The notes: generated by a model from the letters alone, not told the origin. Shown: positions 965 through 14,559, counted from the stretch's first letter. The stretch: 64,000 bases of DNA from Candidatus Butyricicoccus avistercoris (GCA_019113005.1 DXIE01000026.1:15760-79759), one strand, 5' to 3'. Program-made: numbers and translations.

Positions 965-1023
965 CAAAATAAAAAGTGCCATAGCAAAACTACCGCACAA
1001 ACGGTAATTCTAGCTATGGCACT
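965..1023 (-). terminator. Long-stem intrinsic terminator at the end of the early/middle operon
   Basis: Outer stem AGTGCCATAGC (975-985) / GCTATGGCACT (1013-1023) is perfect, with a further inner stem; followed on the minus strand by TTTTATTTT. Confidence 0.8.
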
Positions 1024-1234
1024 GGCTCTCCAGCTCGGGCTTTCGCTCTCCGCACGAACTCTGCACTGGCTCTCCAGCTCGGGCATGATGTTCGTCGATA
1101 TTCAAAATTGCATCTAGCTTACATTTTCGGCAGTATATCGGAAAATTTTTCACAACTGTACTTTCTAGCAGAAATGTCAATCTACTTCCACATTTCGGAC
1201 ATACTAACCAATATCTCTGGTTTCCATTATACAC
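1010..1234 (-). CDS. Cys-rich KTR-type zinc-ribbon protein
   Basis: WLVCPKCG...STVVKNFPIYCRKCK matches the W-x2-CPxCG...DTxLKNFPLYCPKC pattern of Cys_rich_KTR peptides. Confidence 0.7.
   Translation of the reverse strand: MYNGNQRYWLVCPKCGSRLTFLLESTVVKNFPIYCRKCKLDAILNIDEHHARAGEPVQSSCGERKPELESQCHS
1019..1084. repeat. Two exact 22-bp direct repeats separated by 22 bp
   Basis: GCACTGGCTCTCCAGCTCGGGC at 1019-1040 and 1063-1084. Confidence 0.95.
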
Positions 1235-1280
1235 TTATTTTTTCCTCCTGTCTATTCTGTTTTACGACCGCCCGCACTTT

Positions 1281-2084
1281 CTACAATCTATGTTCATTAT
1301 ATATACATGGTTTCAAGTCCGAAATAAAAGAAACCTTATTTTGTTTTTTCTTTCTTGACGGTCTACAAGGTCTATCAATAGATGTATCAGACAACATATA
1401 TTTCAAATATTTATATGCTCCAAACTCATTTTGTTCTGAGCTAGATTCTAATACATAAGCTCCTGCTGGTGGCTCAAGAAAAACTCTGTCATCAACCCAA
1501 TCAGATGACTGTTTAGGTTTATCCAAATTCTTTGATGGTGTCCACATTCGCTTACCATTTGATGTGCCAGCCTCTTTAGGCTCTTTTGCAAGATACTCAG
1601 CTAGAGCTTTATAATTTCTAACATCTATATTTTCTATTTCAATCATATCACCATAACGCCATAATGATTTTATAATATCAAAATCATTCTCTGTGCTATT
1701 TATTACAATATGATGATGATAGCGACCTTCCGAATGTTTATTCTCGGTTACATACAAATATTTAAGTTCTTGATTATGCTTTTTCCTGTGATTGCGTAAA
1801 TCACGGATAAACTGTCTTAAACATTTAACAGCATTTTGCCTTGTATCTGGTAAATCAATGTCACGATATGTAAGAGTTATAAATAAATCCTTACCAGTAA
1901 AATTAGCAGCTAAAATAAATTCCAACATTCTACAAGCAGCTTTTAAGTTCTGCCAACTTCTAGCTTTTGTGCTGATTTTAGTTTTAGCTTGCCTTACATG
2001 CTCTTTATCTTTTGGATAAGCAGCAGTATATATAATTTCTGAAACTAATCTACCAGCAATAATAGTTTTCCTGCGTTTAGCCAA
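1281..2084 (-). CDS. HUH-superfamily rolling-circle replication-type protein
   Basis: Motif I FITLTY, motif II RYHHHIVIN, motif III LAEYLAKE (YxxK), in the correct order. Confidence 0.8.
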   Translation of the reverse strand: MAKRRKTIIAGRLVSEIIYTAAYPKDKEHVRQAKTKISTKARSWQNLKAACRMLEFILAANFTGKDLFITLTYRDIDLPDTRQNAVKCLRQFIRDLRNHRKKHNQELKYLYVTENKHSEGRYHHHIVINSTENDFDIIKSLWRYGDMIEIENIDVRNYKALAEYLAKEPKEAGTSNGKRMWTPSKNLDKPKQSSDWVDDRVFLEPPAGAYVLESSSEQNEFGAYKYLKYMLSDTSIDRPCRPSRKKKQNKVSFISDLKPCIYNEHRL

Positions 2085-2101: not shown

Positions 2102-2126
2102 AAATGTGTTCAAATTGAACACATTT
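2102..2126. repeat. Palindrome copy 1 (core GTGTTCAAATTGAACAC 2106-2122, extends to 25 bp)
   Basis: AAATGTGTTCAA-A-TTGAACACATTT between the MazG-like stop and the RBS of rep. Confidence 0.95.
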
Positions 2127-2394
2127 ATTTTTTCATTCTAGCAAGCTGTCTGTTGAGTTTATTTTCCATTGTAGAAATAATTTCGCTTTTGTCAATATGC
2201 ATTAAATACTGCATCTGCTCAAGCATAATAGTTACATCTGCCATTTCTTCGATTACAGCCTTTCTTCCACCCTCACCAGAAAGCAATTTACACATAGCAG
2301 AAGAAAGCTCAGAAGCCTCTTCTGCTAATTTTAAGCCTTGATTTCTAAAGCCATAATGTTTTGCAATTTTTTTAATATCTTTATAATGGTTCAT
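2125..2394 (-). CDS. MazG-like / NTP pyrophosphohydrolase
   Basis: KLAEEASEL...VIEEMADV (EExxE...EExxD all-alpha NTP-PPase motif). Confidence 0.75.
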   Translation of the reverse strand: MNHYKDIKKIAKHYGFRNQGLKLAEEASELSSAMCKLLSGEGGRKAVIEEMADVTIMLEQMQYLMHIDKSEIISTMENKLNRQLARMKK

Positions 2395-2716
2395 TTTCTT
2401 TCACTACTTTCTTAACAAGTTCATTGTATTCTTCTATCCACTCAATAGGGATTTCTTTTTTATCAAAAAAATATCTATTTACAGCATCATGAATATCAAC
2501 TAAGCGGATATTATTCAAAATATTTTTAGGCATTAAACCAAGAGGCGGTTTTTTTATCTGTGTTTTATCTTCCTCATCTGAAATAGGAATTTCAAAAGTT
2601 AATTCACTCATATCAGGTTCTAAATAAAACTCTATGTTAAGCACTACATCTTTTGATTTATCTCTAAATCCTAACTTTCTTTTTATAGCATTAAAAACCT
2701 TTTTAAACTTCTTCAT
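2381..2716 (-). CDS. Hypothetical phage protein
   Basis: ORF track; overlaps neighbours in operon fashion. Confidence 0.6.
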   Translation of the reverse strand: MKKFKKVFNAIKRKLGFRDKSKDVVLNIEFYLEPDMSELTFEIPISDEEDKTQIKKPPLGLMPKNILNNIRLVDIHDAVNRYFFDKKEIPIEWIEEYNELVKKVVKENEPL

Positions 2717-3149
2717 GTTCTTTCACCTGTTCCAAGTAACGTTTATGAGCTGCTTTCATTTCATCTTCATAAAGATAATCAATTTTTGTATCAGTAATTT
2801 GTTCAACTTTCATTCTTAGCTTTTCATCAGCGTATTCTTCATCATTATCAGTTTTCATTTTCTGATATTCCTTTGAAATTGAAAGCAAAGAATTTATAAA
2901 AGGTTGTATTCTCTTACTACCAAAACCATAAGCATCATTAACAGCAACGATTGCAAGCCAAAGAGCTTTTTGGTTCGACCTGTCAATTTTTATTTTCAGG
3001 GCAATATCTGTTGAAGTTTTTTCTACTCCTTCATAAACTAACTTACGTTTTGTAAGTTCGTCCATCAAAGTCATTCTTGCTGATCTGCCATGATGTTTAA
3101 ATTTTCTCTTTTTGCTTTTCGACATACCAGTTCCGCTCCCAATATTCAC
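2703..3149 (-). CDS. Hypothetical phage protein
   Basis: ORF track; LAIVAVNDAYGFGSKRIQPF segment resembles a common Clostridial phage family; start uncertain. Confidence 0.6.
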   Translation of the reverse strand: MNIGSGTGMSKSKKRKFKHHGRSARMTLMDELTKRKLVYEGVEKTSTDIALKIKIDRSNQKALWLAIVAVNDAYGFGSKRIQPFINSLLSISKEYQKMKTDNDEEYADEKLRMKVEQITDTKIDYLYEDEMKAAHKRYLEQVKEHEEV

Positions 3150-3528
3150 AATTTTCCCTTAAATCCCTATGTTTTAACTTATCACAAATACACTCACTTG
3201 TAATTCTTCCATCAGAAATATGTAGCATTCCTTGCTGTAAGTGTTTACAGCACAAACACTTTCCTTTTAGTTGTGATGTTGCAATATCAAGCTCAGATTT
3301 TACTTTCATAAGCTCATTCATAAGTTTGTTTTCAGTTGATTCATCTTTATCACCTGCAAACTGACTTAGTAACTCCATAACTTCACAACTTTGCTTTGAT
3401 TTTTTAAGTTCATCTATTGCTTGATTTATAATTGCACAGCCTTTGATTGTACAATTATGCTCATATCCGCAACCAAGACATTTATGTTTATCTGTTTTTA
3501 TGCGGTTTAATTCTTTTATAATATCCAT
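3097..3528 (-). CDS. Hypothetical Cys-rich phage protein
   Basis: ORF track; CLGCGYEHNC and CLCCKH clusters. Confidence 0.6.
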   Translation of the reverse strand: MDIIKELNRIKTDKHKCLGCGYEHNCTIKGCAIINQAIDELKKSKQSCEVMELLSQFAGDKDESTENKLMNELMKVKSELDIATSQLKGKCLCCKHLQQGMLHISDGRITSECICDKLKHRDLRENCEYWERNWYVEKQKEKI

Positions 3529-3544
3529 TGCTTAAACCTCAAAT

Positions 3545-3682
3545 TTACTTATTATTCTTGCACTCACTGCAAGGTGATTTATAACAAGGTGTACCTGAAT
3601 AACAACAATTCAAACAATCTTTTATAATTGATTGTTTTTTATCTAAACTTGAAACTTCCCATTTAAGTTTTATATTTTCCAT
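3545..3682 (-). CDS. Small Cys-rich hypothetical protein (45 aa)
   Basis: Manual translation MENIKLKWEVSSLDKKQSIIKDCLNCCYSGTPCYKSPCSECKNNK; fills an operon gap. Confidence 0.45.
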   Translation of the reverse strand: MENIKLKWEVSSLDKKQSIIKDCLNCCYSGTPCYKSPCSECKNNK

Positions 3683-3686
3683 TACT

Positions 3687-3839
3687 TTAACCCCTAAATA
3701 TATTATCTTTTTTATTTGTCAAACTAACTTTTAAACTCATTTTCCTGTGTGGACAATATTTCATGCGTTCTGGTCTACGCATAGCACTTTCGCATACACC
3801 AAACTTATTAAGCATCACACACCCCATAAAACACTGCAT
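3687..3839 (-). CDS. Small hypothetical protein (50 aa)
   Basis: Manual translation MQCFMGCVMLNKFGVCESAMRRPERMKYCPHRKMSLKVSLTNKKDNIFRG, RBS AGAGG. Confidence 0.4.
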   Translation of the reverse strand: MQCFMGCVMLNKFGVCESAMRRPERMKYCPHRKMSLKVSLTNKKDNIFRG

Positions 3840-3848
3840 AATAAACCT

Positions 3849-4109
3849 CTATTTATCATTACACTGCTTAATAATAATTTTCTTTTTATCTTTTATAATA
3901 TTCAGCATTAAAAACTCCTGTTCTCTCTGAAGTTCATCACCATGTATTGCAAAATAATTTAACAGTGCCAAAACTCCATTTTTATTCCACATATGTAGTC
4001 CTGTTAAACCATTAGCATTTAAAAACCATTTGTGAACATCTCTCAATGCTTGTATATAGCCTTCATTGTAAAGAATATCTAGTTTATCGCTCCAGTGTTG
4101 TTTTGTCAA
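3849..4109 (-). CDS. Hypothetical phage protein
   Basis: ORF track; 4-nt overlap with ssb stop. Confidence 0.6.
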   Translation of the reverse strand: MTKQHWSDKLDILYNEGYIQALRDVHKWFLNANGLTGLHMWNKNGVLALLNYFAIHGDELQREQEFLMLNIIKDKKKIIIKQCNDK

Positions 4110-4537
4110 AATGGCACATCTCCCTCATCGTCCAATTCAGTGAAATTGGGTTCAATGTTTGGTGCATAACTTGGCACTTGATAATTGGGTTCTGTTTGAC
4201 CGTTAGCCTCACGAGATTTTTTAGTTTCACCAAAGCTAATCTCATTTACATTTACCTCAATGGCAGTACGTTTGTTTCCGTTTTTATCCTTCCAGTTGCG
4301 TGACTGAATACGACCCTCAACAATAGCCATCATACCCTTGGTAAACCACTGTCTTATAAAATCTGCTTTTTGACCCCAAGCAGTACAATTTATAAAATCT
4401 GTTGTTTTTTCACCATTTGCAGTCTTAACATTACGGTCAATAGCCAGTGTGAAAGTACACACTGGCATATTATTATTTATATATTTGTGTTCAGGGTCAC
4501 GAGTTAAACGCCCCATCAGAATTGCTTTATTTAGCAT
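4106..4537 (-). CDS. ssb: Single-stranded DNA-binding protein
   Basis: MLNKAILMGRLTRDPE...TDFINCTAWG...VEGRIQSRNW; acidic C-terminal tail DDEGDVPF; start corrected to 4537. Confidence 0.95.
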   Translation of the reverse strand: MLNKAILMGRLTRDPEHKYINNNMPVCTFTLAIDRNVKTANGEKTTDFINCTAWGQKADFIRQWFTKGMMAIVEGRIQSRNWKDKNGNKRTAIEVNVNEISFGETKKSREANGQTEPNYQVPSYAPNIEPNFTELDDEGDVPF

Positions 4538-4553
4538 TTTATAAATCTTCCTT

Positions 4554-5435
4554 TCATGGTGCTTGAATTTCACACCAACATTGAGCTTCCCAAGAGAATA
4601 CAAAATAATCAAAATTGCCAAAAACGACCCTATACTCCCAATTCTCAAATTTATCTTTCCTAGCTAAAAGCATATTGCAAGGCTTTTTCGGTTTATCTCT
4701 TACTGGTTTCCACCACCAAGCTGGCACTGGCATTTCTTCAATTTCATCTACATCAATTTCAACTTCCTGAAATTGTTTTAATTCTTTTGCTGTTGGTGCT
4801 TTTTCTTCTTTTTTGCACTTTTCAGTGAAAGCCTTTTGTTTTTGCTCTGGCATTTTTGACATTTCATAAGCTACTGATGGAGATAATTCTCCATCAGTAA
4901 GCATTTCCTTACCCTCATTGGATAAGTTCTTTTCAATGGCTTGCATTTTTCCAATTTCGCTTGGACTTTCCTTGGTTATCTCCGCGATTTTATCCCTTAA
5001 TCGTCCATTAAATTTAAAACCTTTTTCTTTAAGAGATATCAAAGCCTCTTTAGTGCGTTTAACAGCCTCAACACGCTCAGCATAAGTTAATTCTCGTGTT
5101 TGAGTGTTAGTCTGTATCAGAGCTAGTGTTTCAAGCTCCGAATTAGCTTGACTAGATATAATACAAGGTACAGTTTCCCAGCCTAAACTTTTTATAGCTG
5201 CAAAACGTCTATGTCCCGCTATTAAAAGATAACCGTTACTACTTTTTGTAACTACTAAAGGCTGTTGAAGTCCAATAAGCTCAATACTTTCTGCAAGCTC
5301 ATCAACATTAGCAACTTCAAAGAAGTTTTCATCATTTGTTTTAATCTGAGAGCATTTAATATTTACAATTTCCAATGTGTTCAAATTGAACACATCTTCA
5401 TCTTTGAGTATTGCAGCAAGGTCAAATTTACTCAT
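4554..5435 (-). CDS. parB: ParB/RepB/Spo0J-family partition protein
   Basis: ELAESIELIGLQQPLVV...LIAGHRRFAA (GxxRxxA CTPase motif), followed by an HTH region. Confidence 0.9.
   Translation of the reverse strand: MSKFDLAAILKDEDVFNLNTLEIVNIKCSQIKTNDENFFEVANVDELAESIELIGLQQPLVVTKSSNGYLLIAGHRRFAAIKSLGWETVPCIISSQANSELETLALIQTNTQTRELTYAERVEAVKRTKEALISLKEKGFKFNGRLRDKIAEITKESPSEIGKMQAIEKNLSNEGKEMLTDGELSPSVAYEMSKMPEQKQKAFTEKCKKEEKAPTAKELKQFQEVEIDVDEIEEMPVPAWWWKPVRDKPKKPCNMLLARKDKFENWEYRVVFGNFDYFVFSWEAQCWCEIQAP
5377..5393. repeat. Palindrome copy 2, inside the 5' end of parB
   Basis: GTGTTCAAATTGAACAC; on the minus strand it encodes VFNLNT of ParB. Confidence 0.95.
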
Positions 5436-6195
5436 TACTTACACCCTCCAAATACTCATCAACAAATTTGCGGTATGTTCTGGCAGCCCAACAGTTTGGC
5501 GACCAGCTTATACAGCTTTCATTTGCATAAGCACTTTCGCCCACGCCATTAGAACGCCATATCATATTTTCAAAAATCTTTACTGGTAAATGTTTTCTGA
5601 AATAATCTGCACCTTGCATACAAAGTTCATCTTTTCTAAATTGAGTTATAAGCACCCCTGCAACATTTACATCTGGGTTAATTGCTTTCATACCGTTAAT
5701 TTGCTTTAAGAGGTTTTTAACTCCCTCTTGTTCGTAAACACCAACCGTAGTTGGAATTACTATATCATCAGCTGCACAAATAGCAGCAGCACAAGCAGCC
5801 GAAAAGCTAGGCGGACAATCTATAATCACAAAATCATAAGCATTGCCATCTCTTAAATTATTGCAAAAATCTAAAATTGCACTGTGATTTACCATACCAC
5901 TACGCAGAGTAGATAAATCCATTTTCATCAAATCAATAGAACTAGGAATTATATTTACATTCCTCAAGTATGTATGCTGAATTAAAAAACAGTTTTCCTT
6001 TATTTTGCCCTCTAACAAGTCGCACAAAGTAAAGCCATCAGTTACTGCTTTCATGTGCATGCTGAGATTATACTGACTATCAGCATCAATCAGTAAAACT
6101 CTTTTATCACGCTCAGCCAATATTGCAGCTGTATTTATTGCGGTTGTGGTCTTGCCAACACCGCCTTTTAAATTAACTATTGCTAAAACTTTCAT
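5428..6195 (-). CDS. parA: ParA/Soj-family ATPase
   Basis: Deviant Walker A KGGVGKTT, IDADSQ, IIDCPPS. Confidence 0.92.
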   Translation of the reverse strand: MKVLAIVNLKGGVGKTTTAINTAAILAERDKRVLLIDADSQYNLSMHMKAVTDGFTLCDLLEGKIKENCFLIQHTYLRNVNIIPSSIDLMKMDLSTLRSGMVNHSAILDFCNNLRDGNAYDFVIIDCPPSFSAACAAAICAADDIVIPTTVGVYEQEGVKNLLKQINGMKAINPDVNVAGVLITQFRKDELCMQGADYFRKHLPVKIFENMIWRSNGVGESAYANESCISWSPNCWAARTYRKFVDEYLEGVSNE

Positions 6196-6213
6196 AAAAA
6201 TCTAACCTCTTTT

Positions 6214-6369
6214 TTATACAGATAATTTTCCATTTATTATTTTTTGAGCTTCTTTGTACTTTTTAGTACCCATACATGTGTTAAAAGTAAACTCAATAAC
6301 TACAAAACGTTTTTCAGGGTGAACCCAGATTATATTTCCTGTCTTTCCTTTGATTTCTATAGTTTTCAT
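6214..6369 (-). CDS. Small hypothetical protein (51 aa)
   Basis: Manual translation MKTIEIKGKTGNIIWVHPEKRFVVIEFTFNTCMGTKKYKEAQKIINGKLSV; start overlaps the dnaB stop. Confidence 0.55.
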   Translation of the reverse strand: MKTIEIKGKTGNIIWVHPEKRFVVIEFTFNTCMGTKKYKEAQKIINGKLSV

Positions 6370-7691
6370 TATGCACCTGTTACAAATTTTTGTTGGACTA
6401 CTTTATCAAACTCATTTTCAATTTCAATAAAATAAACCCAGTCCTCTATAAATCTTTGATGTTTACCATCAAAGAACATTTTAAACTTTCCTGTCCTGCC
6501 CTCTTTTGCTTTAGCAATTTTAAGCCAACGGAGAGCATCTTGATTTTCAATATCATCAGGATTTTTCAGTTCATCATCATTAGGAATATATAGGAACAGG
6601 ATAACGTTTGCATCTTGTTCTATCTGACCTGATGAACGTAAGTCTGATGGGTCAGGCTCTTCATATTTTGTTATGTTACGGTTAAGCTGAGAAAGAGCTA
6701 CAACTGTAACATCAAGCTCAGTTGCAATATTTTTTAAAGCTGTTGAAGCATATGTTACACGCTCATATTCGCTATATTTTTTATTTGCATTTTGTATTAG
6801 TTGCAAATAATCAATAAAAACTATATCCAGTCTATCTTTGACAATATCACTTCTAATCTGCTCTGAAGTATAACCAGAAGCCTCATAGATTTTAAAATTT
6901 AGTTTTTTTCTTGCTGCACAGATTATATGCTCTACTTCTAACGGAGTTAAATTTCCGTCTTGAAGTTTTTCAAGAGCAACGCCAGCACTGGCAGCATTTA
7001 TTCTATCCATAATGGTTCGCCTATCAGTTTCCAATGAAAAGAAACCAACTCGGCAAAACTCACCTAAATGTCTACAAAACTGTAATGCCATAGCAGTTTT
7101 ACCAACACTAGGTCTAGCAGCTAAAACCACTAAGCCGTTTTTAGGACATCTAGCAGTTCTATTTAATTTATCAATACCAAAATCAACGAATTTTCGTGGA
7201 ACACCTAAGTTTTGAATGTACTCAACTTGTAATTCATTGTAGTCAAATACATTCTTTCGCTTTTTATTGCTAAGAATATTTACTAAGTTTTCAGCTTTTG
7301 TTCTTAATTCTTCAATATCCGTAAACATTGAAGTATCCAGCTTTATCTGTTCCATAAATTCTCTGGCATGATAAATAGCCGCTGAATTTTTGACCATTTC
7401 CCATACATCAAGCCACATAACAGCAGATGGAGTAAAATCCACCATAGCTTTACATTCTTTAAAAATATAATCTGATGTTTTACTACCAATGGTTTGAGGA
7501 GTGATTTCACTATCCTCGTTAAAGAGTTTTCTTGCAGTGTTAAAAATTAGCCTATGACTTTCAAAGATAAAATCCTTTTCTGTCATTCGCAAAATAATTT
7601 CGGCTGCTGCCTGTTTGTCTTGCAACATGCAACCAATCAGAATATGGCATGATTCAAGATAAGCATCACTGATAAAATATTCGTTGCTCAT
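6369..7691 (-). CDS. dnaB: Phage DnaB-like replicative helicase
   Basis: AARPSVGKT Walker A, FFSLE, VFIDYLQL, LSQLNR, DLRSSGQIEQDA. Confidence 0.93.
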   Translation of the reverse strand: MSNEYFISDAYLESCHILIGCMLQDKQAAAEIILRMTEKDFIFESHRLIFNTARKLFNEDSEITPQTIGSKTSDYIFKECKAMVDFTPSAVMWLDVWEMVKNSAAIYHAREFMEQIKLDTSMFTDIEELRTKAENLVNILSNKKRKNVFDYNELQVEYIQNLGVPRKFVDFGIDKLNRTARCPKNGLVVLAARPSVGKTAMALQFCRHLGEFCRVGFFSLETDRRTIMDRINAASAGVALEKLQDGNLTPLEVEHIICAARKKLNFKIYEASGYTSEQIRSDIVKDRLDIVFIDYLQLIQNANKKYSEYERVTYASTALKNIATELDVTVVALSQLNRNITKYEEPDPSDLRSSGQIEQDANVILFLYIPNDDELKNPDDIENQDALRWLKIAKAKEGRTGKFKMFFDGKHQRFIEDWVYFIEIENEFDKVVQQKFVTGA

Positions 7692-8503
7692 ATCTCTTGC
7701 ACACCCTTTCTTTTTTGTGTACCTGCCGATTTTACAGGCTGTTTTTCATCTGAATAATCTCTTTTCAGCCAATTCAGCAGTGTTGCATAATGGCTGTTAT
7801 ATTTCTTTTTGGGATTGTTCTCCAAGTAGATTGATAAATTCTCAATTTCGCTTTCTACCTGTTCAGTTCCCCAGCGTTTGTTGAGCTTATCAAGCTCCGC
7901 TTGAGTTAGCTGAACATTTTGAAATTCTCCAAAAGTCAATTTATTTTTTTCTTGAGAGAGTGTAACGACGTTAGTCGTTTTTTCCCCCTCTCTCTTATAT
8001 TTTAACTCTTTACTCTTAACTCTTAACTCTTGTCGGACATTGTCTGACGGAATGTCTTGTTCAGTGTCTTGGACAATCATTTGGACATTGTCTTGTGGAA
8101 TGTCTAAAGCTAATTGTTTTTTCTTTTGTCTGTATTTAGCTTTATCAATCGCATATTGTGTTGTGTAACCAACCATGCTTGGCACTTCTGGCAATCGCAT
8201 GAAGTTACAGTTTTCATCAGCCTCATAAACTAAACCGATTTTCTTGTATAGTTCTAAAGCTACACGCACAACATCAACATTCATTTTTGTAATTTCAGCT
8301 ATCTTGTTCACGTCATAAGGAATAATCATGTCACCGATTTGACGTGTCAAAATGCCATTGTTATTAGCTGTTTTAAGGCATAGCTTTAGGTATAAAACTA
8401 CATAAGCATAGCCGTTATTTTGTTCTGCCAACCAGTCAATTCTTTCATCTTCAAAGAAATTTACATTCAGCTGTAAATACCAATATTTTTTATTTTCTGC
8501 CAT
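7688..8503 (-). CDS. Phage replisome organiser / replication initiator (lambda O analogue)
   Basis: N-terminal KKYWYLQLNVNFFEDERID...YLKLCL typical of Phage_rep_org_N; C-terminal KYNSHYATLLNWLKRD; upstream of the helicase. Confidence 0.85.
   Translation of the reverse strand: MAENKKYWYLQLNVNFFEDERIDWLAEQNNGYAYVVLYLKLCLKTANNNGILTRQIGDMIIPYDVNKIAEITKMNVDVVRVALELYKKIGLVYEADENCNFMRLPEVPSMVGYTTQYAIDKAKYRQKKKQLALDIPQDNVQMIVQDTEQDIPSDNVRQELRVKSKELKYKREGEKTTNVVTLSQEKNKLTFGEFQNVQLTQAELDKLNKRWGTEQVESEIENLSIYLENNPKKKYNSHYATLLNWLKRDYSDEKQPVKSAGTQKRKGVQEI
8035..8105. repeat. Iteron-like repeats within the initiator gene (probable ori)
   Basis: GGACATTGTCTGACGGAATGTCT (8035-8057) and GGACATTGTCTTGTGGAATGTCT (8083-8105), 20/23 identical; adjacent TTAACTC tandem run at ~8002-8030. 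Confidence 0.65.
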
Positions 8504-8580
8504 GATTTCACCTCTTTTGGGTATGCTACCGCCAGTCTAGGGTAAAAATCCCTAAGCTGTGCATAATTCTGTGTATTTTG

Positions 8581-8609
8581 TTGACAATTTGCTTTTTAAG
8601 TGATAAAAT
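8581..8609 (+). promoter_or_regulatory. Consensus sigma-A promoter, antisense to the early operon
   Basis: TTGACA (8581-8586), 17 bp, TAAAAT (8604-8609), with extended -10 TG at 8601-8602. Confidence 0.8.
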
Positions 8610-8615
8610 AAGTTT

Positions 8616-8714
8616 AGATTTTATAAACAAAACCTCAAAAAATATTTATAAAAATCTAACCTTTTTACTTATCGTCTGACTGTTTAAACCTCACACAGTC
8701 GGGCGATTTTTTTT
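8616..8714 (+). ncRNA. Candidate ~100-nt antisense sRNA (OOP-like)
   Basis: Bounded by the promoter above and a 13-bp hairpin (8671-8683 / 8695-8707) plus T-run; no sense ORF; overlaps the 3' end of the cII-like gene; start site estimated. Confidence 0.55.
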
Positions 8715-9160
8715 GTTTTTTTTACGAAGAAATTCAAAGCCATAGCAGCCTCCATAATTTCCTCAAGCTCGTCCATGATGTTTTGATAATCTTCTAGCTC
8801 ATCAGAACTAACCAAGCCATCTTCTGCTATTTCAAGCAAAGTATCATCTTGATTATTCTTATCAAACTTATCAAGCAGCCTAACAAGTCGCATTGCAGCC
8901 TGTTCCATGCTGTACGGAACAACTTCTGGTAAAAGGTCGCATAATGGACTTGACATTAGATGCTGATATCCCAAATAAGGATATTGGTATACATCAATCA
9001 TGTTTGCAACAATGTCATCAGCTGGTCTACGTTTACCCGTTTCATAAGCTCGAATACTTTCAACGCTAATATGTAGTTGTTCGGCTACTGACTCTTGAGT
9101 AAAAACCGTTTTTTCACGAGCTGATTTATAAATATTTATGTTGATATTCATACTGGTCAA
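8684..9160 (-). CDS. XRE HTH protein with CII-like C-terminal helical domain
   Basis: N-terminal HTH (TQESVAEQLHISVESIRAYETG); C-terminal IAEDGLVSSDELEDY...ELEEI pattern; sits between xis-like and initiator genes. Confidence 0.7.
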   Translation of the reverse strand: MTSMNININIYKSAREKTVFTQESVAEQLHISVESIRAYETGKRRPADDIVANMIDVYQYPYLGYQHLMSSPLCDLLPEVVPYSMEQAAMRLVRLLDKFDKNNQDDTLLEIAEDGLVSSDELEDYQNIMDELEEIMEAAMALNFFVKKTKKIARLCEV

Positions 9161-9164
9161 CCCC

Positions 9165-9437
9165 TTATTTTTGCTTTATATTAGACTTAGGTTCAATATA
9201 AAGCGTTTTTATTTCTGTTTCTTCAATCCCTAAAGACTTTAAAAAAGGTATTCTAGGGATTTTTACTCTAGTCCCCCAAAGCAGAGTTGGAAAACCCAGA
9301 GTATCTGGAGCATAGCGAGCCTTAAAGCGTATTGCCTGAGGGTCACAACAAAGGACTTTTGCAACCTCAGCAGGAGTGAAGTAATCTCTGTTAATTGCTA
9401 AAAGCTCTTTCATGTTATCGCTCATGTTATTTCTCAC
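9165..9437 (-). CDS. Excisionase-like HTH DNA-binding protein
   Basis: YFTPAEVAKVLCCDPQAIR...LGFP...GTRVKIPRIPF winged-helix pattern; follows cro. Confidence 0.6.
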   Translation of the reverse strand: MRNNMSDNMKELLAINRDYFTPAEVAKVLCCDPQAIRFKARYAPDTLGFPTLLWGTRVKIPRIPFLKSLGIEETEIKTLYIEPKSNIKQK

Positions 9438-9445
9438 CCTTCGTT

Positions 9446-9655
9446 TTAAACTTTGCTAATAGTGAAATTTTTAGGTGTGAAAAGCTCTGAAATATCACAG
9501 TTAAGTATTTCTGCTATTTTCTTTGCACATTCACATGGTATACTTCTGTTACCATTTTCATACTGACAATAGGTAGATATTGCGATATTCAATTCATTAG
9601 CAATATCTTTTTGTGTTATTTTTGCTGTTTTTCTTTTTTCCTCTAATATATTCAT
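9446..9655 (-). CDS. cro: Cro-like XRE regulator
   Basis: 69-aa HTH (TQKDIANELNIAISTYCQYENG), divergent from the repressor. Confidence 0.8.
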   Translation of the reverse strand: MNILEEKRKTAKITQKDIANELNIAISTYCQYENGNRSIPCECAKKIAEILNCDISELFTPKNFTISKV

Positions 9656-9668
9656 ATCATCACCTCAC

Positions 9669-9723
9669 TTTCACTTTTAGAGAAGTATATTTGTATTATA
9701 ATTTCACATTTAGAGAATGTCAA
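9669..9723 (-). promoter_or_regulatory. Lytic promoter P_R with two operator-like repeats
   Basis: Minus strand TTGACA (9723-9718), 17 bp, TATAAT (9700-9695); repeats TTTCACTTTTAGAGAA (9669-9684) and TTTCACATTTAGAGAA (9702-9717, filling the spacer). Confidence 0.8.
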
Positions 9724-9814
9724 TAATAAAATTTGCAATTTGCAAAAAAACATTCACAATAAATAAAATAAATGTTATCATTTTTACATAATGAGAAGTA
9801 GAGGCATACGCAAT

Positions 9815-10174
9815 ATGAACATTGGTCAACGCATAAAAAAACTCAGAGAAGATGAGCATTTATCTCAACTCGAACTTGCAAAAATAATAAATGTTTGCAA
9901 TACAACTGTATCTCAATATGAAAATGGTTCACGAACACCAAGCGATGATATAAAAATCAAACTTGCAAATTATTTTAATGTATCTACTGATTATTTACTC
10001 GGACTATCTGACAATGAAAAAGAGCCCACTCAAGAGGAATGGGACTCCTTGACCGATACTCAAAAACAAATTATTGAGTTAATGGGTAAATTATCACCTG
10101 AGCAACAGGACGAACTTGTTCGTCAAGCTCGGTATCAGCTTTGGCTATTACTTCAAAAAGACGCTGAGCAATAA
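9815..10174 (+). CDS. CI-like repressor (XRE HTH; no peptidase domain visible)
   Basis: MNIGQRIKKLREDEHLSQLELAKIINVCNTTVSQYENG...VSTDYLLG; start moved to ATG 9815. Confidence 0.85.
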   Translation: MNIGQRIKKLREDEHLSQLELAKIINVCNTTVSQYENGSRTPSDDIKIKLANYFNVSTDYLLGLSDNEKEPTQEEWDSLTDTQKQIIELMGKLSPEQQDELVRQARYQLWLLLQKDAEQ

Positions 10175-10335
10175 AAGCATTATAGTCTTTTTGTTGTAAT
10201 GTGTAATTTGACATTGTTAGTAGACTAAACATTTCTTTTTGTTCTTTAGTCATCGGTATGCACCGTCCTTTTTGGTTATTTACCAAAATTTTCACATAAA
10301 AGAAAATATAACAAAACAACTGAAAAAATAAAAAT

Positions 10336-10352
10336 GTGTTCAAATTGAACAC
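10336..10352. repeat. Palindrome copy 3
   Basis: GTGTTCAAATTGAACAC, 23 nt before the start of lipoprotein 1. Confidence 0.95.
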
Positions 10353-10375
10353 ATTTCTTTTTAGGGGGAATTTTT

Positions 10376-10999
10376 TTGAAGAAATTATTGTTAGTTTTAG
10401 CATTAACTTGCGTTATTCTTTCTGGTTGTGGTAGTAACAATACTCAAACCGACACTACAAAAAGTGCCACAAATAGCAGTCAAAATAGCTCAACATCAGA
10501 AGTATCATCAGAAAATAATTCGGAAATTGAAAATTCACAGCCTGTTGTGCCTACTTTTGGCAAAACAGCTCAATCATTTATTGATGTAATGCGTCCTTAT
10601 GCTCAAGAACAAGACGCAAATTTATTTACTCAAGAACCTAAAGTTTCTGAAATGGAAGCTGGTGAATATTTACCAGAAGTTACTGTTTATGATTATGCGG
10701 TTGGAAATGCAGGTAGCTTAATTTTATATGAAGTAAAATCTACTGGTGAATTTTATCAGGCTTTATTAGCTTTTGATATATCAAAAGAAGATGAAACATC
10801 AATTTTATCTTTAGGTAGAGTAAGCGGTTTGATGATGGCAATGTTAGAACCAGATGAAAATACTAGAATGATTATAGATGAAGATTTAAAAACTTCTAAT
10901 ATTTCTGAAGATGCTACTACTTATGCTACTGGTACAATTGCATCATGGGTATATAATGTTAATTCAGGTCAAACATATTTAACAGCAATAGCATCATAA
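10376..10999 (+). CDS. Prophage lipoprotein 1 (unknown function)
   Basis: Signal peptide with lipobox LSGC, Ser/Thr/Asn-rich linker, TTG start after GGGGG RBS. Confidence 0.85.
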   Translation: MKKLLLVLALTCVILSGCGSNNTQTDTTKSATNSSQNSSTSEVSSENNSEIENSQPVVPTFGKTAQSFIDVMRPYAQEQDANLFTQEPKVSEMEAGEYLPEVTVYDYAVGNAGSLILYEVKSTGEFYQALLAFDISKEDETSILSLGRVSGLMMAMLEPDENTRMIIDEDLKTSNISEDATTYATGTIASWVYNVNSGQTYLTAIAS

Positions 11000-11007
11000 A
11001 TAAAAAT

Positions 11008-11024
11008 GTGTTCAAATTGAACAC
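11008..11024. repeat. Palindrome copy 4
   Basis: GTGTTCAAATTGAACAC, 8 nt after the lipoprotein 1 stop and 23 nt before lipoprotein 2. Confidence 0.95.
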
Positions 11025-11047
11025 TTTTCTTTTAAGGGGGAATATTC

Positions 11048-11791
11048 TTGAAAAAATTATTGTTAATTTTCGCATTAACCTGTGTTATTCTTTCTGGTTG
11101 TAGTAGTAACAGTCAGCAAACAGATAACTCTAAATCTTCTGTACAAAGTACAAGTAGCGGTCAAAGCAGTGAAACATCAAAGGAAGAAACTCAAAAAGAA
11201 GATTTATCTAAAGAATTGGAAAATATTAAAGTAACAGCATCTCTAGATGAAATGATGGGATATGAAAAAGTTACAATAGAAAATACCAGTTCTTATGTAT
11301 TTACAAGCAGTGTTCATGTAAGGTTTTATAATTCTAATAACAAAATGGTTGGCAATGATACAATTTTTGTAGAGTCTTTAGCTCCTGGTGACTATACTTG
11401 GGCTAATATATCTGTGTCAGAACTTGGAGAATTATCTTTTAAATATGATTTCTCTATGAATTATGAATTTACTGAACCTCAATCTGTAAGTAACAATCAA
11501 ACTGTTAATGATGATTGGTCTGCTGAAATGACAGAGAAAATGTCTGGCTTTCAAAATACATCTTGGTATCCATTTATAGAAGAAATAAATGTATATAATG
11601 GTGATGGAGAACGTGATGCACTGGTTATTGCTATTGTTTCCAGCAATACTTCACAGGAAGATATTGACCGAATAGGTAACACTATCTTTGGAAATTTTGC
11701 TTTTGGTACAGGAGCAGACCGTAGTTTTGATGTTATTTCTGTATCAGTACAAAATAGCAATGGTGATGAGTTATTTCTTCGTACAAAATAA
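11048..11791 (+). CDS. Prophage lipoprotein 2 (FxLYD-like Ig-type domain)
   Basis: Lipobox LSGC; VTIENTS...VRFYNSNNKMVG...VESLAPGD resembles FxLYD domains. Confidence 0.8.
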   Translation: MKKLLLIFALTCVILSGCSSNSQQTDNSKSSVQSTSSGQSSETSKEETQKEDLSKELENIKVTASLDEMMGYEKVTIENTSSYVFTSSVHVRFYNSNNKMVGNDTIFVESLAPGDYTWANISVSELGELSFKYDFSMNYEFTEPQSVSNNQTVNDDWSAEMTEKMSGFQNTSWYPFIEEINVYNGDGERDALVIAIVSSNTSQEDIDRIGNTIFGNFAFGTGADRSFDVISVSVQNSNGDELFLRTK

Positions 11792-11815
11792 TTTATAATA
11801 CACAGTAAATAAAAA

Positions 11816-11832
11816 GTGTTCAATTTGAACAC
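11816..11832. repeat. Palindrome copy 5 (central base T)
   Basis: GTGTTCAATTTGAACAC, 22 nt before lipoprotein 3. Confidence 0.95.
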
Positions 11833-11854
11833 TTTTCTTTTAAGGGGGAATTTT

Positions 11855-12730
11855 ATGAAAAAGCTACTATTAGGGTTAATTCTTTCTAGCCTACTTCTTA
11901 CTGGGTGCAATCAAAATAACGAAAATGCATCTAGCTCACAAGATAATAATTCTTCTGTGGAACAAACATTAGAAGTAACAGATAAAGAAATGACATTAAC
12001 CTTAAACTTCTGGAACAGTGATGATAGACTTAATTATTCAAGTTTAGAAAAAACAGGTATATATACTGGTGAAGTTGATGAAAACGGATTGCCTTCTGGA
12101 CATGGACGTTTTGATACAGAAAACAGCGAAGGGCTTCCTTGGTATTATGACGGAGAATTTTCTAACGGCTCATTTAATGGTATTGGTAAATGTGTATGGG
12201 AAAAACAAGAAGGTGTAAGAGAGAACGACTATATTGAATATGGTAATTATAAAGATGGCTTATTTGTTCCAACAAAAAGCCAGTTGTTAATGCATTTAGG
12301 ACAACCAGATATGAACTTTGGTGAATTTAGTGTTAGCGATAAAAGCATTGCTTTCATTGATTCACACGAAAACCTTTTCCCTACTTATACCGAATCTGAT
12401 TTGCAAGAATTAGAATCTTACGTAGACCGTACAATAGAATATAAACATTTAATGAAAGCACCAGACAAATATTTAGAAAATATTATAGAAATAAAAGATG
12501 CTATAATATATCAGATTTTTGAAAATGATTTATGTGGACATACAGTAACATCTATTCTAGCTGGTAATTTAAATGGAGATTATTACACCATATATTTTGA
12601 CCGTTCATTAGAACTTTATCAGGGTGACAGCATTTCTTTCTTAGGACTTCCAATAGCTTCATCTTGGTTTGAAAATGTTTCTGGTGGTGTAACTAATAAC
12701 TTTGTAGTGTATGGTTGTAGTATATTTTAA
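11855..12730 (+). CDS. Prophage lipoprotein 3 (MORN-like repeats plus OB-fold-like C-terminus)
   Basis: Start corrected to ATG 11855 (RBS GGGGG); lipobox LTGC; YTGEVDENGLPSGHGRF / YDGEFSNGSFNGIGK MORN-like repeats; YKHLMKAPDKY C-terminal pattern. Confidence 0.8.
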   Translation: MKKLLLGLILSSLLLTGCNQNNENASSSQDNNSSVEQTLEVTDKEMTLTLNFWNSDDRLNYSSLEKTGIYTGEVDENGLPSGHGRFDTENSEGLPWYYDGEFSNGSFNGIGKCVWEKQEGVRENDYIEYGNYKDGLFVPTKSQLLMHLGQPDMNFGEFSVSDKSIAFIDSHENLFPTYTESDLQELESYVDRTIEYKHLMKAPDKYLENIIEIKDAIIYQIFENDLCGHTVTSILAGNLNGDYYTIYFDRSLELYQGDSISFLGLPIASSWFENVSGGVTNNFVVYGCSIF

Positions 12731-12732
12731 AA

Positions 12733-12749
12733 GTGTTCAAATTGAACAC
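12733..12749. repeat. Palindrome copy 6
   Basis: GTGTTCAAATTGAACAC, 2 nt after the lipoprotein 3 stop. Confidence 0.95.
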
Positions 12750-12750
12750 A

Positions 12751-12785
12751 AAAAATTTCCCGTCCTTATATGGGCGGGATTTTTT
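12751..12785 (+). terminator. Intrinsic terminator between the lipoprotein array and the integrase
   Basis: TCCCGTCC / GGGCGGGA hairpin followed by a T-run. Confidence 0.75.
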
Positions 12786-12802
12786 ATAAGAGGTGAAAAT
12801 TT

Positions 12803-13993
12803 ATGATATGTATAAATAAGCGATGCGGTAAAGAGATACCAAACGAGTCAAAATTTTGTATGTATTGCGGAAAAAATCAAAAAGAAAAAGCCCGCACTAA
12901 AAGAGCGAATGGTGAAGGCTCAATATATCAAATGCCAGATAAGCGTTGGAAAGCTGAAATAGTGCTAGGCTATGAAATTGATGGATATAGTGGAAAACTT
13001 AGAAAAGTACGCAGAACAAAAATAGCAGATACAAAATCCGAGCTTGTAGAACTAATGCCTGATTGGAGAAAACAATGCATACAAGAATATAAAGCACTTA
13101 TAAAAGCAATAGAGCCAACTCCACAACCTGAACTGGAACAGGCAAAAAACACTACCACTACCCTATCTGATTGTTGGAAAATATATTGTGACTCTCGTGC
13201 ATACGATGGACTAAGTAAATCACAAAAACAAAAACTTGGGTATGCATGGAATAAGTCTGAAGCACTGCATGATAAACCAATAAAAGAAATAACACTTGAT
13301 GATATGCAAGAAATAGTAGATACAAAAGCACCGACATATTATCCAGCAAAGGATATAAGAACAGTGCTATCACATTGTATGAATGTAGCTATTAAACGAG
13401 ATTTAATAAACTTTAATCGTACCGAATATTTAGAACTTCCATCATTAAAAGCCTCAGAACGACAGCCATTTACAAATGATGATATAGAAACATTCTGGAA
13501 TGCATGGGAAAAATATGGCGGTTTTGTTGGCTATATCTTAGTTATGATATATGCAGGACTTCGACCTGGTGAACTAAGAGGACTGCAAATAGAGAATATA
13601 AATCTTAAAGAGCAGTATATGACAGGCGGTATTAAGACTGATGCAGGACGTAATAGAACTATACCAATAGCAGATAGAATAGTCCCAGTATTAGCAAAAC
13701 TTATATCTGAACGAACATCAGGAAAACTTGTAACAATGAGTGAAGATAGATTTTATGCAAGTTATTGGGATACCATAGAACGCTTACAAGTTACACGCTT
13801 GCAGCCTTACTCGTGTAGACACACATATTTTACACGACTAGCAGAAGCAGATGTGCAACCTGGAGTAATAACAGCAGCAGGTGGACATGAGTCATACTCA
13901 ACTACAATGACCTACACCCATGTAAGATTAGAAAAACTACTTGATGCAGTAAATAAAATAGACCCTAAAAACGGCAAGAGCCAGAGCAATTGA
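12803..13993 (+). CDS. int: Tyrosine integrase with N-terminal zinc ribbon
   Basis: CINKRC...FCMYCG, RANGEGSIYQ arm-binding motif, catalytic GLRPGE, YSCRHT, GGH, TTMTY. Confidence 0.95.
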   Translation: MICINKRCGKEIPNESKFCMYCGKNQKEKARTKRANGEGSIYQMPDKRWKAEIVLGYEIDGYSGKLRKVRRTKIADTKSELVELMPDWRKQCIQEYKALIKAIEPTPQPELEQAKNTTTTLSDCWKIYCDSRAYDGLSKSQKQKLGYAWNKSEALHDKPIKEITLDDMQEIVDTKAPTYYPAKDIRTVLSHCMNVAIKRDLINFNRTEYLELPSLKASERQPFTNDDIETFWNAWEKYGGFVGYILVMIYAGLRPGELRGLQIENINLKEQYMTGGIKTDAGRNRTIPIADRIVPVLAKLISERTSGKLVTMSEDRFYASYWDTIERLQVTRLQPYSCRHTYFTRLAEADVQPGVITAAGGHESYSTTMTYTHVRLEKLLDAVNKIDPKNGKSQSN

Positions 13994-14005
13994 GCTCTGG
14001 CTTTT
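13976..14005 (+). terminator. Integrase terminator
   Basis: AGCCAGAGC / GCTCTGGCT stem followed by TTT. Confidence 0.75.
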
Positions 14006-14143
14006 ATATTGGGAAATAATAGGGGGACAGTTCGTGGCGTGCATTAGAGTAGAGATGATAATACTTATTCAAAAATCAATAATTTGAATGATTTACCGCC
14101 ACTAACATAAGTATACATTAGGCTTATACATAAATCAATATAA

Positions 14144-14175
14144 AAGTGGGAATTAAGTGGGAATAAAAATGGAAT
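14144..14175. repeat. Arm-type integrase binding site candidates
   Basis: AAGTGGGAAT at 14144-14153 and 14155-14164, plus degenerate AATGGAAT, between int and the tRNA. Confidence 0.55.
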
Positions 14176-14314
14176 GAAAGAGGAACGAAAACAAACCACT
14201 TATACTTTTAACTGCTATTAAACCATAATAAGCATTAAATATAAGGATTTACACCCCATCTGTACCCCATGCTAAAATAGGCTAAAAAGTTGTATAAAAC
14301 AGACTAAAAGCAAT

Positions 14315-14346
14315 AAAAAAACGCTGTAACTAAGTGTTACAGCGTT
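14315..14346 (-). terminator. Terminator immediately downstream of tRNA-Ser(GCT)
   Basis: Perfect 11-bp stem AACGCTGTAAC / GTTACAGCGTT with a T-run on the minus strand. Confidence 0.75.
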
Positions 14347-14349
14347 ATA

Positions 14350-14439
14350 TGGCGGAGAAAGAGGGATTTGAACCCTCGCGACACTTTCGCGCCCTACTCC
14401 CTTAGCAGGGGAGCCCCTTCACCACTTGGGTATTTCTCC
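14350..14439 (-). tRNA. tRNA-Ser(GCT); probable prophage integration target
   Basis: GGAGAAATACCCAAGTGG...CTGCTAA anticodon loop, long variable arm, GGTTCAAATCC T-arm, encoded CCA. Confidence 0.95.
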
Positions 14440-14445
14440 AGCTTG

Positions 14446-14534
14446 TGGCGGAGAGGGTGGGATTCGAACCCACGCGCCCTCTCGGACAAACGGTTTTCAA
14501 GACCGCCTCGTTATGACCACTTCGATACCTCTCC
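14446..14534 (-). tRNA. tRNA-Ser(TGA)
   Basis: GGAGAGGTATCGAAGTGG...CTTGAAA anticodon loop, GGTTCGAATCC, encoded CCA. Confidence 0.95.
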
Positions 14535-14559
14535 GAATCTCCGTCTGACAAGCAAATAT

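Follow-up and report, generated by a model that had tools for sequence, protein, structure and literature searches.

Which protein reads the 17-bp palindrome GTGTTCAAWTTGAACAC that recurs in a prophage of Candidatus Butyricicoccus avistercoris (GCA_019113005.1), and what does it do there? The window analyzed here, a 64,000-nt stretch of contig C14 (DXIE01000026.1:15760-79759 in the assembly; positions below count from its first letter), carries part of this prophage, including adjoining parB and parA genes. An initial annotation of the sequence proposed that the palindrome is the cognate parS of the phage ParB. That proposal stands in part: the motif is phage-specific and linked to parAB, and the ParB is predicted to adopt a Noc/ParB/KorB fold, but a minority of relatives lacking ParB keep the motif. 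With moderate confidence, drawn from comparative sequence analysis and a structural model, we read the palindrome as a parS-like site of this phage ParB family, with one copy conserved within or next to parB and several others dispersed over the genome.

The palindrome, composed of two 8-bp half-sites around one central base, occurs exactly six times in the 64-kb window, always within the prophage, compared with zero copies in 100 dinucleotide shuffles of the window:

2106..2122: copy 1, in the 40 bp that separate the MazG-like gene from HUH rep, ending 21 nt before the rep start
5377..5393: copy 2, within parB, codons 15-20 (VFNLNT), at +42 from the parB start
10336..10352: copy 3, downstream of the cI-like gene, 23 nt before the start of lipoprotein gene 1
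11008..11024: copy 4, 23 nt ahead of lipoprotein gene 2; its cassette duplicates that of copy 3
11816..11832: copy 5, with a central T, 22 nt before lipoprotein gene 3
12733..12749: copy 6, between the lipoprotein-3 stop codon and an intrinsic terminator (12758-12779), with the integrase starting 53 nt further on

Allowing up to three mismatches reveals no extra site in the window, and scanning the 1.98-Mb, 58-contig assembly with up to one mismatch adds nothing to these six copies. A degenerate-motif scan of the whole assembly returns one further match, an unrelated one with one mismatch, on contig C31. The initial annotation had described six copies confined to the prophage, one of them encoding VFNLNT at the 5' end of parB and four lying 21-23 nt before the start codons of rep and the three lipoprotein genes. 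The scans of the window and of the whole assembly confirm the count and its confinement (zero sites in the host chromosome versus six in the prophage), and the four distances measure 21, 23, 23, and 22 nt. The three copies at the lipoprotein genes are not independent events, since they belong to a single duplicated cassette that also comprises the ribosome-binding site and the signal peptide. Many relatives keep the site upstream of rep; relatives also have a site downstream of the cI-like gene, before a moron gene.

The exact 17-mer is present at 52 IMG/VR loci, mostly in phages encoding ParA, ParB, Rep, and HNH proteins at 30-60% amino-acid identity. Whole-record scans widen the motif to GTGTYCRANYYGRACAC and show 3-8 copies scattered over each genome, counts in fragmentary records being lower bounds, and the variant GTGCCC..GGGCAC adds more than 115 further loci. 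The generalized motif, GTGYYCRANYYGRRCAC, with the consensus (C/A)(G/T)GTGYYCRA-N-TYGRRCAC, covers more than 150 IMG/VR loci and shows weak preferences at two flanking positions. Four copies each are found in Flavonifractor phage Cormatin (ON453905), an induced prophage of an OMM12 strain (PMC10197239), and in the metagenomic record MT835558. In the host's order (401 genomes examined) the distribution of counts is bimodal, with no copy in most genomes and clusters of 3-23 copies in prophage-sized stretches of about 16, control motifs remaining near zero in the same set. Within the host family, 39 of 109 genomes contain a copy and 26 contain at least three, clustered in prophages. Searches with single proteins as the query gave few loci; the related loci from the protein search lie in Oscillospiraceae (Lawsonibacter and uncultured metagenome-assembled genomes). 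The motif sequence occurs in none of the literature searched. In genus g4, nearly all sites take the hetero form GTGTTCAAWTTGGACAC.

The sequence comparisons support a tie of the motif to the ParA/ParB module that is stronger than its tie to any other gene. Family ParBs are cleanly separated by a profile built from alignment A2, scoring E<1e-40 versus E ~1e-16 to 1e-25 for chromosomal ParB and Noc proteins, and all 12 genomes with a family ParB contain motif clusters. At a completeness of 90% or more, IMG/VR genomes with at least three sites comprise 25 ParB-positive and 2 ParB-negative members, and those with at most two sites comprise 2 ParB-positive and 20 ParB-negative members (Fisher p=3e-9 for the whole comparison, related phages being taken as independent here and in the other association statistics). 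One of the two ParB-negative multi-site genomes, G031 (L086), is an unrelated phage whose TTTGAACA iterons match the pattern by chance, so that it was rejected as a ParB-less carrier. Its dense TTTGAACA / TGTTCAAA iterons, which occupy 8380-8745 in both orientations beside a large helicase-primase gene, look like a replication origin. Within the same phage backbone, sites are present in 38 of 38 ParB-positive elements versus 4 of 12 ParB-negative phages (p=9e-7).

Of 38 ParB-family genes with an available 5' end, 32 have a site between -37 and +54 of the parB start, usually in the linker behind the conserved N-terminal sequence MAKKFxLxxL. Over the intragenic site, the encoded amino acids change non-conservatively (VFNLNT, VSKSDT, VSNLDT, VPESGT), with the DNA motif kept. 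In the G015/G040/G122 clade, the site lies in the parA-parB spacer and is the sole phage site in G015 and G040. Saumur, a myovirus with a different backbone, has its site in the same spacer, and its ParB, composed of ParB_N and DUF3850 domains, is 40% identical to that of the G040 clade; the ParBs of the window, G007, and Cormatin give no DUF3850 match.

Two further elements place a palindrome near parA. In the conjugative-like element G199_C291, a single site lies upstream of parA, and that contig gives no Rep match. Phage MT835532, whose ParB is only 31% identical, lacks the motif and carries eight copies of another 8-1-8 palindrome, GTGCGACACnGTGTCGCAC; the palindrome, gGTGCGACACnGTGTCGCACc in MT835532.1 (L139), lies at 4562, 5150, 6716, 7646, 13249, 21456, 22116, and 33831, one copy falling ~250 bp upstream of parA, and the phage gives no HUH Rep match. 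G199_C291 (L128) also contains, at 4891-14537, six intergenic copies of ACCGGAAGTRCTTCCGGT between A-runs and T-runs, one of which abuts the single GTGTCCAACTTGGACAC site upstream of parA. Considered as a second centromere, these repeats were rejected, as they look like bidirectional intrinsic terminators.

The parB and parA genes of the prophage lie on the minus strand, the parA stop codon overlapping the parB start:

4554..5435, minus: parB, 293 aa, with a ParB_N domain (GHRRFAA) and a helix-turn-helix DNA-binding domain
5428..6195, minus: parA, 255 aa, with the deviant Walker A motif KGGVGKTT

ParA matches Pfam AAA_31 (E=3.7e-42), CbiA (E=3.5e-20), and the ParA-like phrog_164. ParB matches PF02195 (E=1.6e-14), and its sequence matches in the PDB include Noc and Spo0J. 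The AlphaFold2 model of ParB, with a predicted local distance difference test (pLDDT) score of ~90 over residues 21-227, aligns in Foldseek over 190-220 columns to Noc (7nfu, template modelling (TM) score 0.72), ParB (6t1f, 0.68), and KorB (8qa9, 0.62). These alignments take in both the N-terminal nucleotide-binding domain and the DNA-binding domain, with CTP/CDP-bound ParB structures among the matches. The prophage ParB is thus predicted from the model to have a Noc/ParB/KorB-type fold with a helix-turn-helix DNA-binding domain. Its GxxRxxA box reads GHRRFAA, and G74, H75, R77, A80, N110, and R114 are invariant across 12 homologues. Several features of a type I ParABS system are present: a deviant Walker-A ParA adjoining parB, a ParB_N domain, a helix-turn-helix domain, and a palindrome in or near the par operon. 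The C-termini of ParB relatives are either longer and Cys-rich or contain DUF3850. Two ParB frames of IMG/VR relatives contain in-frame stops (TAG in G020:C1:201-812 and TGA in G026:C1:5496-5970), which could be pseudogenes, sequencing errors, or recoding.

The variation of the motif informs on the type of target. The half-sites vary independently, through the variable pairs 5/13 and 7/11, which argues for a double-stranded DNA target rather than an RNA hairpin. On the sense strand, 34 variable pairs are G-U-compatible and 30 are mismatching; at the 34 confidently oriented gene-proximal sites, 4 are G-U-compatible and 6 are mismatching. Relatives rich in G+C have no T-tract after the site, and about half of all sites lie within coding sequences. 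Because of these mismatch counts, the missing T-tracts, and the intragenic sites, the terminator-like score of the palindrome in this A+T-rich phage is incidental. The palindrome is best read, from its pattern of variation, as a double-stranded DNA site for a symmetric dimer.

Intercistronic sites usually follow a common layout of stop codon, 2-12 nt, palindrome, 12-23 nt containing the Shine-Dalgarno sequence, and start codon. A Shine-Dalgarno sequence and start codon follow 46 of the 102 unique sites at a distance of 9-25 nt, versus 9.2 +/- 3.0 for random positions. The initial annotation had taken the 21-23-nt spacing as a hint of KorB-like gene silencing. Since the sites fill nearly the only non-coding DNA of compact genomes, and about half are intragenic, the spacing is not specific and this argument is weakened. 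Fixed promoter distances and a clamp-locking partner of the KorA/TrbA type, expected of a KorB-like repressor, are not seen, and no partner gene discriminates motif-positive elements. In one clade (G005, G007, G023, G025, and others), the palindrome before rep is part of a leader: a TTGACA-17-TATTCT promoter-like element comes first, followed by a hairpin rich in G+C (gcggacgggg...cctcgtccgc), then the palindrome and the Shine-Dalgarno sequence, an order that suggests a regulated start of the late operon. The asymmetric pairs are unevenly oriented, with 50 of the C/A type (C5/A13, A7/C11) versus 20 of the T/G type (T5/G13, G7/T11) on the lytic-sense strand, a bias whose binomial p=4e-4 holds if sites are independent, kinship being ignored. 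At the sequence level, this bias would fit a strand-specific role.

Several observations weigh against ParB as the cognate binder. Residues 228-293 of ParB have pLDDT <50 and no Pfam match, leaving no recognizable C-terminal dimerization domain. The recognition helix varies considerably among clades sharing the same motif (SPSEIGKMQAI, SESQIARAKAI, SKSKLARLKVIR). The initial annotation had suggested looking for co-variation of the palindrome with the ParB helix-turn-helix across relatives; no clean switch accompanies the GTGTYC and GTGCCC variants, both of which coexist in single genomes. In G005 and G006, the intragenic copy is lost and the corresponding peptide reads AAKLEP. The remaining observations concern carriers with no ParB-like open reading frame (hmmsearch, E<=0.01 to 1). 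G375_C17, among the closer relatives of the prophage, keeps three identical perfect sites with parAB absent between dnaB and ssb; G375_C20 has two sites, and G369_C1 has three imperfect ones. G545 has five heterogeneous sites, its ParA being paired with a DUF3102 protein instead of ParB. The satellites G429_C57, G304_C2, G405_C6, L133, and L135 have two or three sites each, and the decayed remnants G142_C4 and G142_C6 retain sites and the cI-site-lipoprotein order. A search of the ParB-less elements for ParB fragments found none, and no family ParB occurs elsewhere in G375, G405, G429, or G304, so that a supply of ParB in trans is not evident. Retention of the motif in relatives without parB, which the initial annotation had named as a sign against its proposal, thus holds for a minority, whereas multi-site phages are nearly all ParB-positive. 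In this highly mosaic family, the ParB-less carriers may have recently lost the par cassette or had it replaced, may have received their sites along with exchanged modules, or may use the ParB of a co-infecting phage.

G429_C57 (L112, 9700-17100), G304_C2 (L113), G405_C6 (L110), L133, and L135 are small integrated elements that look like capsid-encoding phage satellites: they consist of two Rep paralogues and a zinc ribbon together with an integrase, a cI-like repressor, and a gene for an HK97 protease-capsid fusion. A ParA paired with a DUF3102 (PF11300) protein of 324-363 aa is found in G545 (L255, 3540-5433), G369_C1 (L108), G185_C15 (L120-121), and G304_C1 (L129). With its long coiled-coil tail and an N-terminal peptide resembling that of ParB (MAKKPVDISAML / MGKPDLGALIA), the DUF3102 protein apparently takes the place of the centromere-binding partner without being homologous to it.

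Instead of ParB, the binder could be another phage-encoded dimeric DNA-binding protein, for example a timing repressor or a roadblock of the early and late operons, that is usually but not always co-inherited with parAB; the copy in parB would then regulate parB and not act as its centromere. This alternative, which we regard as unlikely, would account for the perfect sites in ParB-less phages and satellites, for the 46 of 102 sites just upstream of a Shine-Dalgarno sequence and start codon, and for the rep-proximal site of one clade, whose leader places a TTGACA-17-TATTCT promoter and a hairpin rich in G+C ahead of it. However, in an all-against-all clustering no protein family splits motif-positive from motif-negative elements better than ParB, about half of the sites are intragenic, and the individual candidates fail. 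The immunity region at 9655-9791, where cI/Cro operators would be expected, has a consensus promoter and TTTCACnTTTAGAGAA repeats and no palindrome even at three mismatches. HTH158 is 70-75% identical to the Cormatin protein in phages both with and without the motif. The Cys_rich_KTR zinc ribbon is universal, motif-free prophages included, and the HUH Rep is encoded by prophages with zero sites (G343, G356, G201, G185, G304_C1, L134, G324). A protein of the host, such as a regulator, a nucleoid protein, or a defense sensor, whose site is exploited by phages, is a far less probable binder. Conservation of the motif over hosts ranging from ~36% G+C (window) to ~62% (L134, Lawsonibacter), and in ParB-less elements, would suit it, but a host regulon would leave chromosomal sites, and the host chromosome here has none, as do most genomes of the order.

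Two further explanations act through a folded single strand instead of a duplex. The palindrome may form a single-stranded DNA hairpin tied to the HUH Rep, as a priming or single-strand-origin-like signal or as a Rep recognition hairpin in sigma replication. The HUH Rep, with catalytic motifs intact, is encoded by nearly all motif carriers, is their most widely shared gene, and is the only replication gene of the satellites; the strand bias of 50 versus 20 would moreover place wobble pairs on the template strand. Yet Rep-positive prophages without any site are common, and very similar Reps accompany three sites in G369_C1 and zero in G185_C15 and G304_C1. Mismatches affect 20 of 70 asymmetric pairs on the favored strand, the bias itself was computed ignoring shared descent, an 8-1-8 palindrome has no loop for an HUH nick site, and the G199_C291 site adjoins parAB on a contig with no Rep match, which together make a Rep hairpin very unlikely. 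An RNA-level element, whether a weak bidirectional terminator, a processing site, or a target of a Com-like zinc ribbon, is the least probable of the explanations considered. In this A+T-rich phage, the flanks lengthen the stem, T-runs follow, and a simple scan rates five sites as terminator-like; moreover, all family members have the Cys_rich_KTR zinc ribbon, which carries the annotation of a translational regulator. Against this stand the G+C-rich relatives lacking T-runs, the many intragenic sites, and the sense-strand C-A/A-C mismatches, which are as frequent as G-U pairs and of which a C-A at stem position 5 would wreck a 7-8-bp stem. As judged from sequence variation, the mismatch statistics largely refute an RNA or terminator role.

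The remaining genes of the prophage and its integration site are arranged as follows:

379-747, minus: HNH endonuclease
1010-1234, minus: Cys_rich_KTR zinc ribbon, 74 aa, Com/Ogr-like CxxC...CxxC
1281-2084, minus: HUH rolling-circle-type Rep (PF23343), with motifs uTLTY, RxHxH, and YxxK intact
Between rep and the single-stranded DNA-binding protein (SSB) gene, minus: MazG-like gene, then small open reading frames
4106-4540, minus: SSB
Beyond parA, minus, in this order: DnaB, replisome organizer, HTH regulator (HTH158, phrog_6499), and Cro-like gene
9791-10174, plus: cI-like gene, followed by the three lipoprotein genes, also plus
12803..13993, plus: tyrosine integrase with an N-terminal zinc ribbon
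14350..14411: attR core, 62 bp, the 3' part of tRNA-Ser(GCT), with an identical copy (attL) at contig C18:8697-8758

The prophage is integrated in tRNA-Ser (14350-14439), with host genes beyond. It extends past the left end of the window through 15.7 kb of structural genes, devoid of sites, to the contig end. The parAB genes lie between dnaB and ssb in the early lytic operon. Unlike a phage-plasmid, which is kept outside the chromosome and lacks chromosomal att junctions, this prophage has an integrase and the 62-bp att repeat. The episomal state that the initial annotation proposed may exist as an additional phase.

Rep and the Cys_rich_KTR zinc ribbon (1010-2084, minus strand) are paired immediately upstream of HNH and terminase throughout the family, and family phages with the HUH Rep at the early/late boundary encode DnaB and a replisome organizer too. 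In the immunity region at 9655-9791, the minus strand has a perfect TTGACA-17-TATAAT promoter (9723-9695); the direct repeats TTTCAC(T/A)TTTAGAGAA at 9669 and 9702 are likely cI/Cro operators. The tandem lipoprotein moron genes at 10376-12730 share a common signal peptide, MKKLLL..LSGC, with unrelated mature parts, the third showing a MORN-repeat match. The cI-site-lipoprotein arrangement is also seen in the same-genus remnant G142_C6.

Under the parS-like reading, a ParB dimer would bind the 17-bp double-stranded site with one monomer per 8-bp half-site, its N-terminal domain binding a nucleotide, probably CTP. One site would be held in or next to parB, in the sequence-tolerant linker following MAKKFxLxxL, and three to seven more would be dispersed wherever 17 bp fit, in short intercistronic spacers or tolerant coding stretches. 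Once loaded there, ParB would work with ParA in positioning or segregating phage genome copies that lie outside the chromosome. Given that the prophage is integrated and that parAB belongs to the early lytic operon, we infer that the system would act on phage DNA that is replicating or not yet integrated, following infection or induction, and would not serve the upkeep of a plasmid-prophage. Local damping of transcription at intercistronic sites may be a side effect.

The proposed system shares with Spo0J/ParB-parS and with Noc and its binding site (Noc-NBS) a deviant Walker-A ParA adjoining a ParB with ParB_N and helix-turn-helix domains, together with a 16-17-bp perfect palindrome in or beside the par operon and several copies per replicon. 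It differs from chromosomal and plasmid ParABS in the site, which matches neither TGTTNCACGTGAAACA nor the Noc site and has an odd 8-1-8 layout, and in the setting, an integrated prophage with an integrase and with parAB in an early lytic operon. The phage ParB also begins with MAKKFxLxxL, not LG[KR]GL, and its C-terminal dimerization domain is not recognizable. As in KorB-OB of RK2 (PMC11790492), a ParB-fold protein is accompanied by many odd-length palindromes dispersed over a mobile element of ~40-60 kb, and the Foldseek match to KorB is to its co-complex with KorA (8qa9, TM 0.62). Unlike in KorB-OB, no KorA-like clamp-locking partner was found, about half of the phage sites are intragenic, and promoter-class spacing is absent. 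A site in an intragenic linker and the existence of ParB-less carriers set the phage family apart from known ParABS systems, KorB-OB, and N15 alike.

The centromere sites of phage N15 are dispersed, and mycobacteriophages with parABS are known. These temperate phages resemble the present family in combining ParA/ParB-type genes with several inverted-repeat centromere sites. N15 and the cluster A mycobacteriophages are extrachromosomal prophages that are not known to carry an integrase at that locus. The present family, in contrast, has an integrase and att sites and is found integrated, as IMG/VR provirus labels also indicate. In the phage-plasmid N15, SopB goes with the centromere sites IR1-4 (cited in PMC7205306). 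A 2025 survey reported that phage ParB-CTPase-DUF3850 fusions are consistently encoded beside parA and demonstrated CTP binding for one (PMC12704722). The survey names no DNA site, the stem "palindrom" being absent from its text, and proposes RNA-related roles (PMC12704722). The Saumur ParB shares this ParB_N and DUF3850 architecture, unlike the ParBs of the window, G007, and Cormatin.

ParB CTPases are well understood on chromosomes and plasmids, and the 2025 survey draws attention to phage-encoded ParA-ParB pairs (PMC12704722). The palindrome supplies a concrete and conserved candidate site for such a pair, 17 bp in length, found at more than 150 viral loci and multicopy in about a quarter of host-family genomes. 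The natural ParB-less carriers provide controls, and the second phage with another 8-1-8 palindrome is suited to specificity swaps. Should ParB not be the binder, the motif would be a widespread orphan regulatory element of gut phages. A broader picture, which we put forward tentatively and regard as doubtful, is that integrative temperate phages infecting gut hosts of the Oscillospirales type share a ParB-parS network, in which ParABS works in the lytic or pre-integration phase and ParB-less relatives and satellites plug into, or compete for, the ParB of a co-infecting phage. If true, such a network would give phage operons of ParA and DUF3850-type ParB-CTPases their first DNA target.

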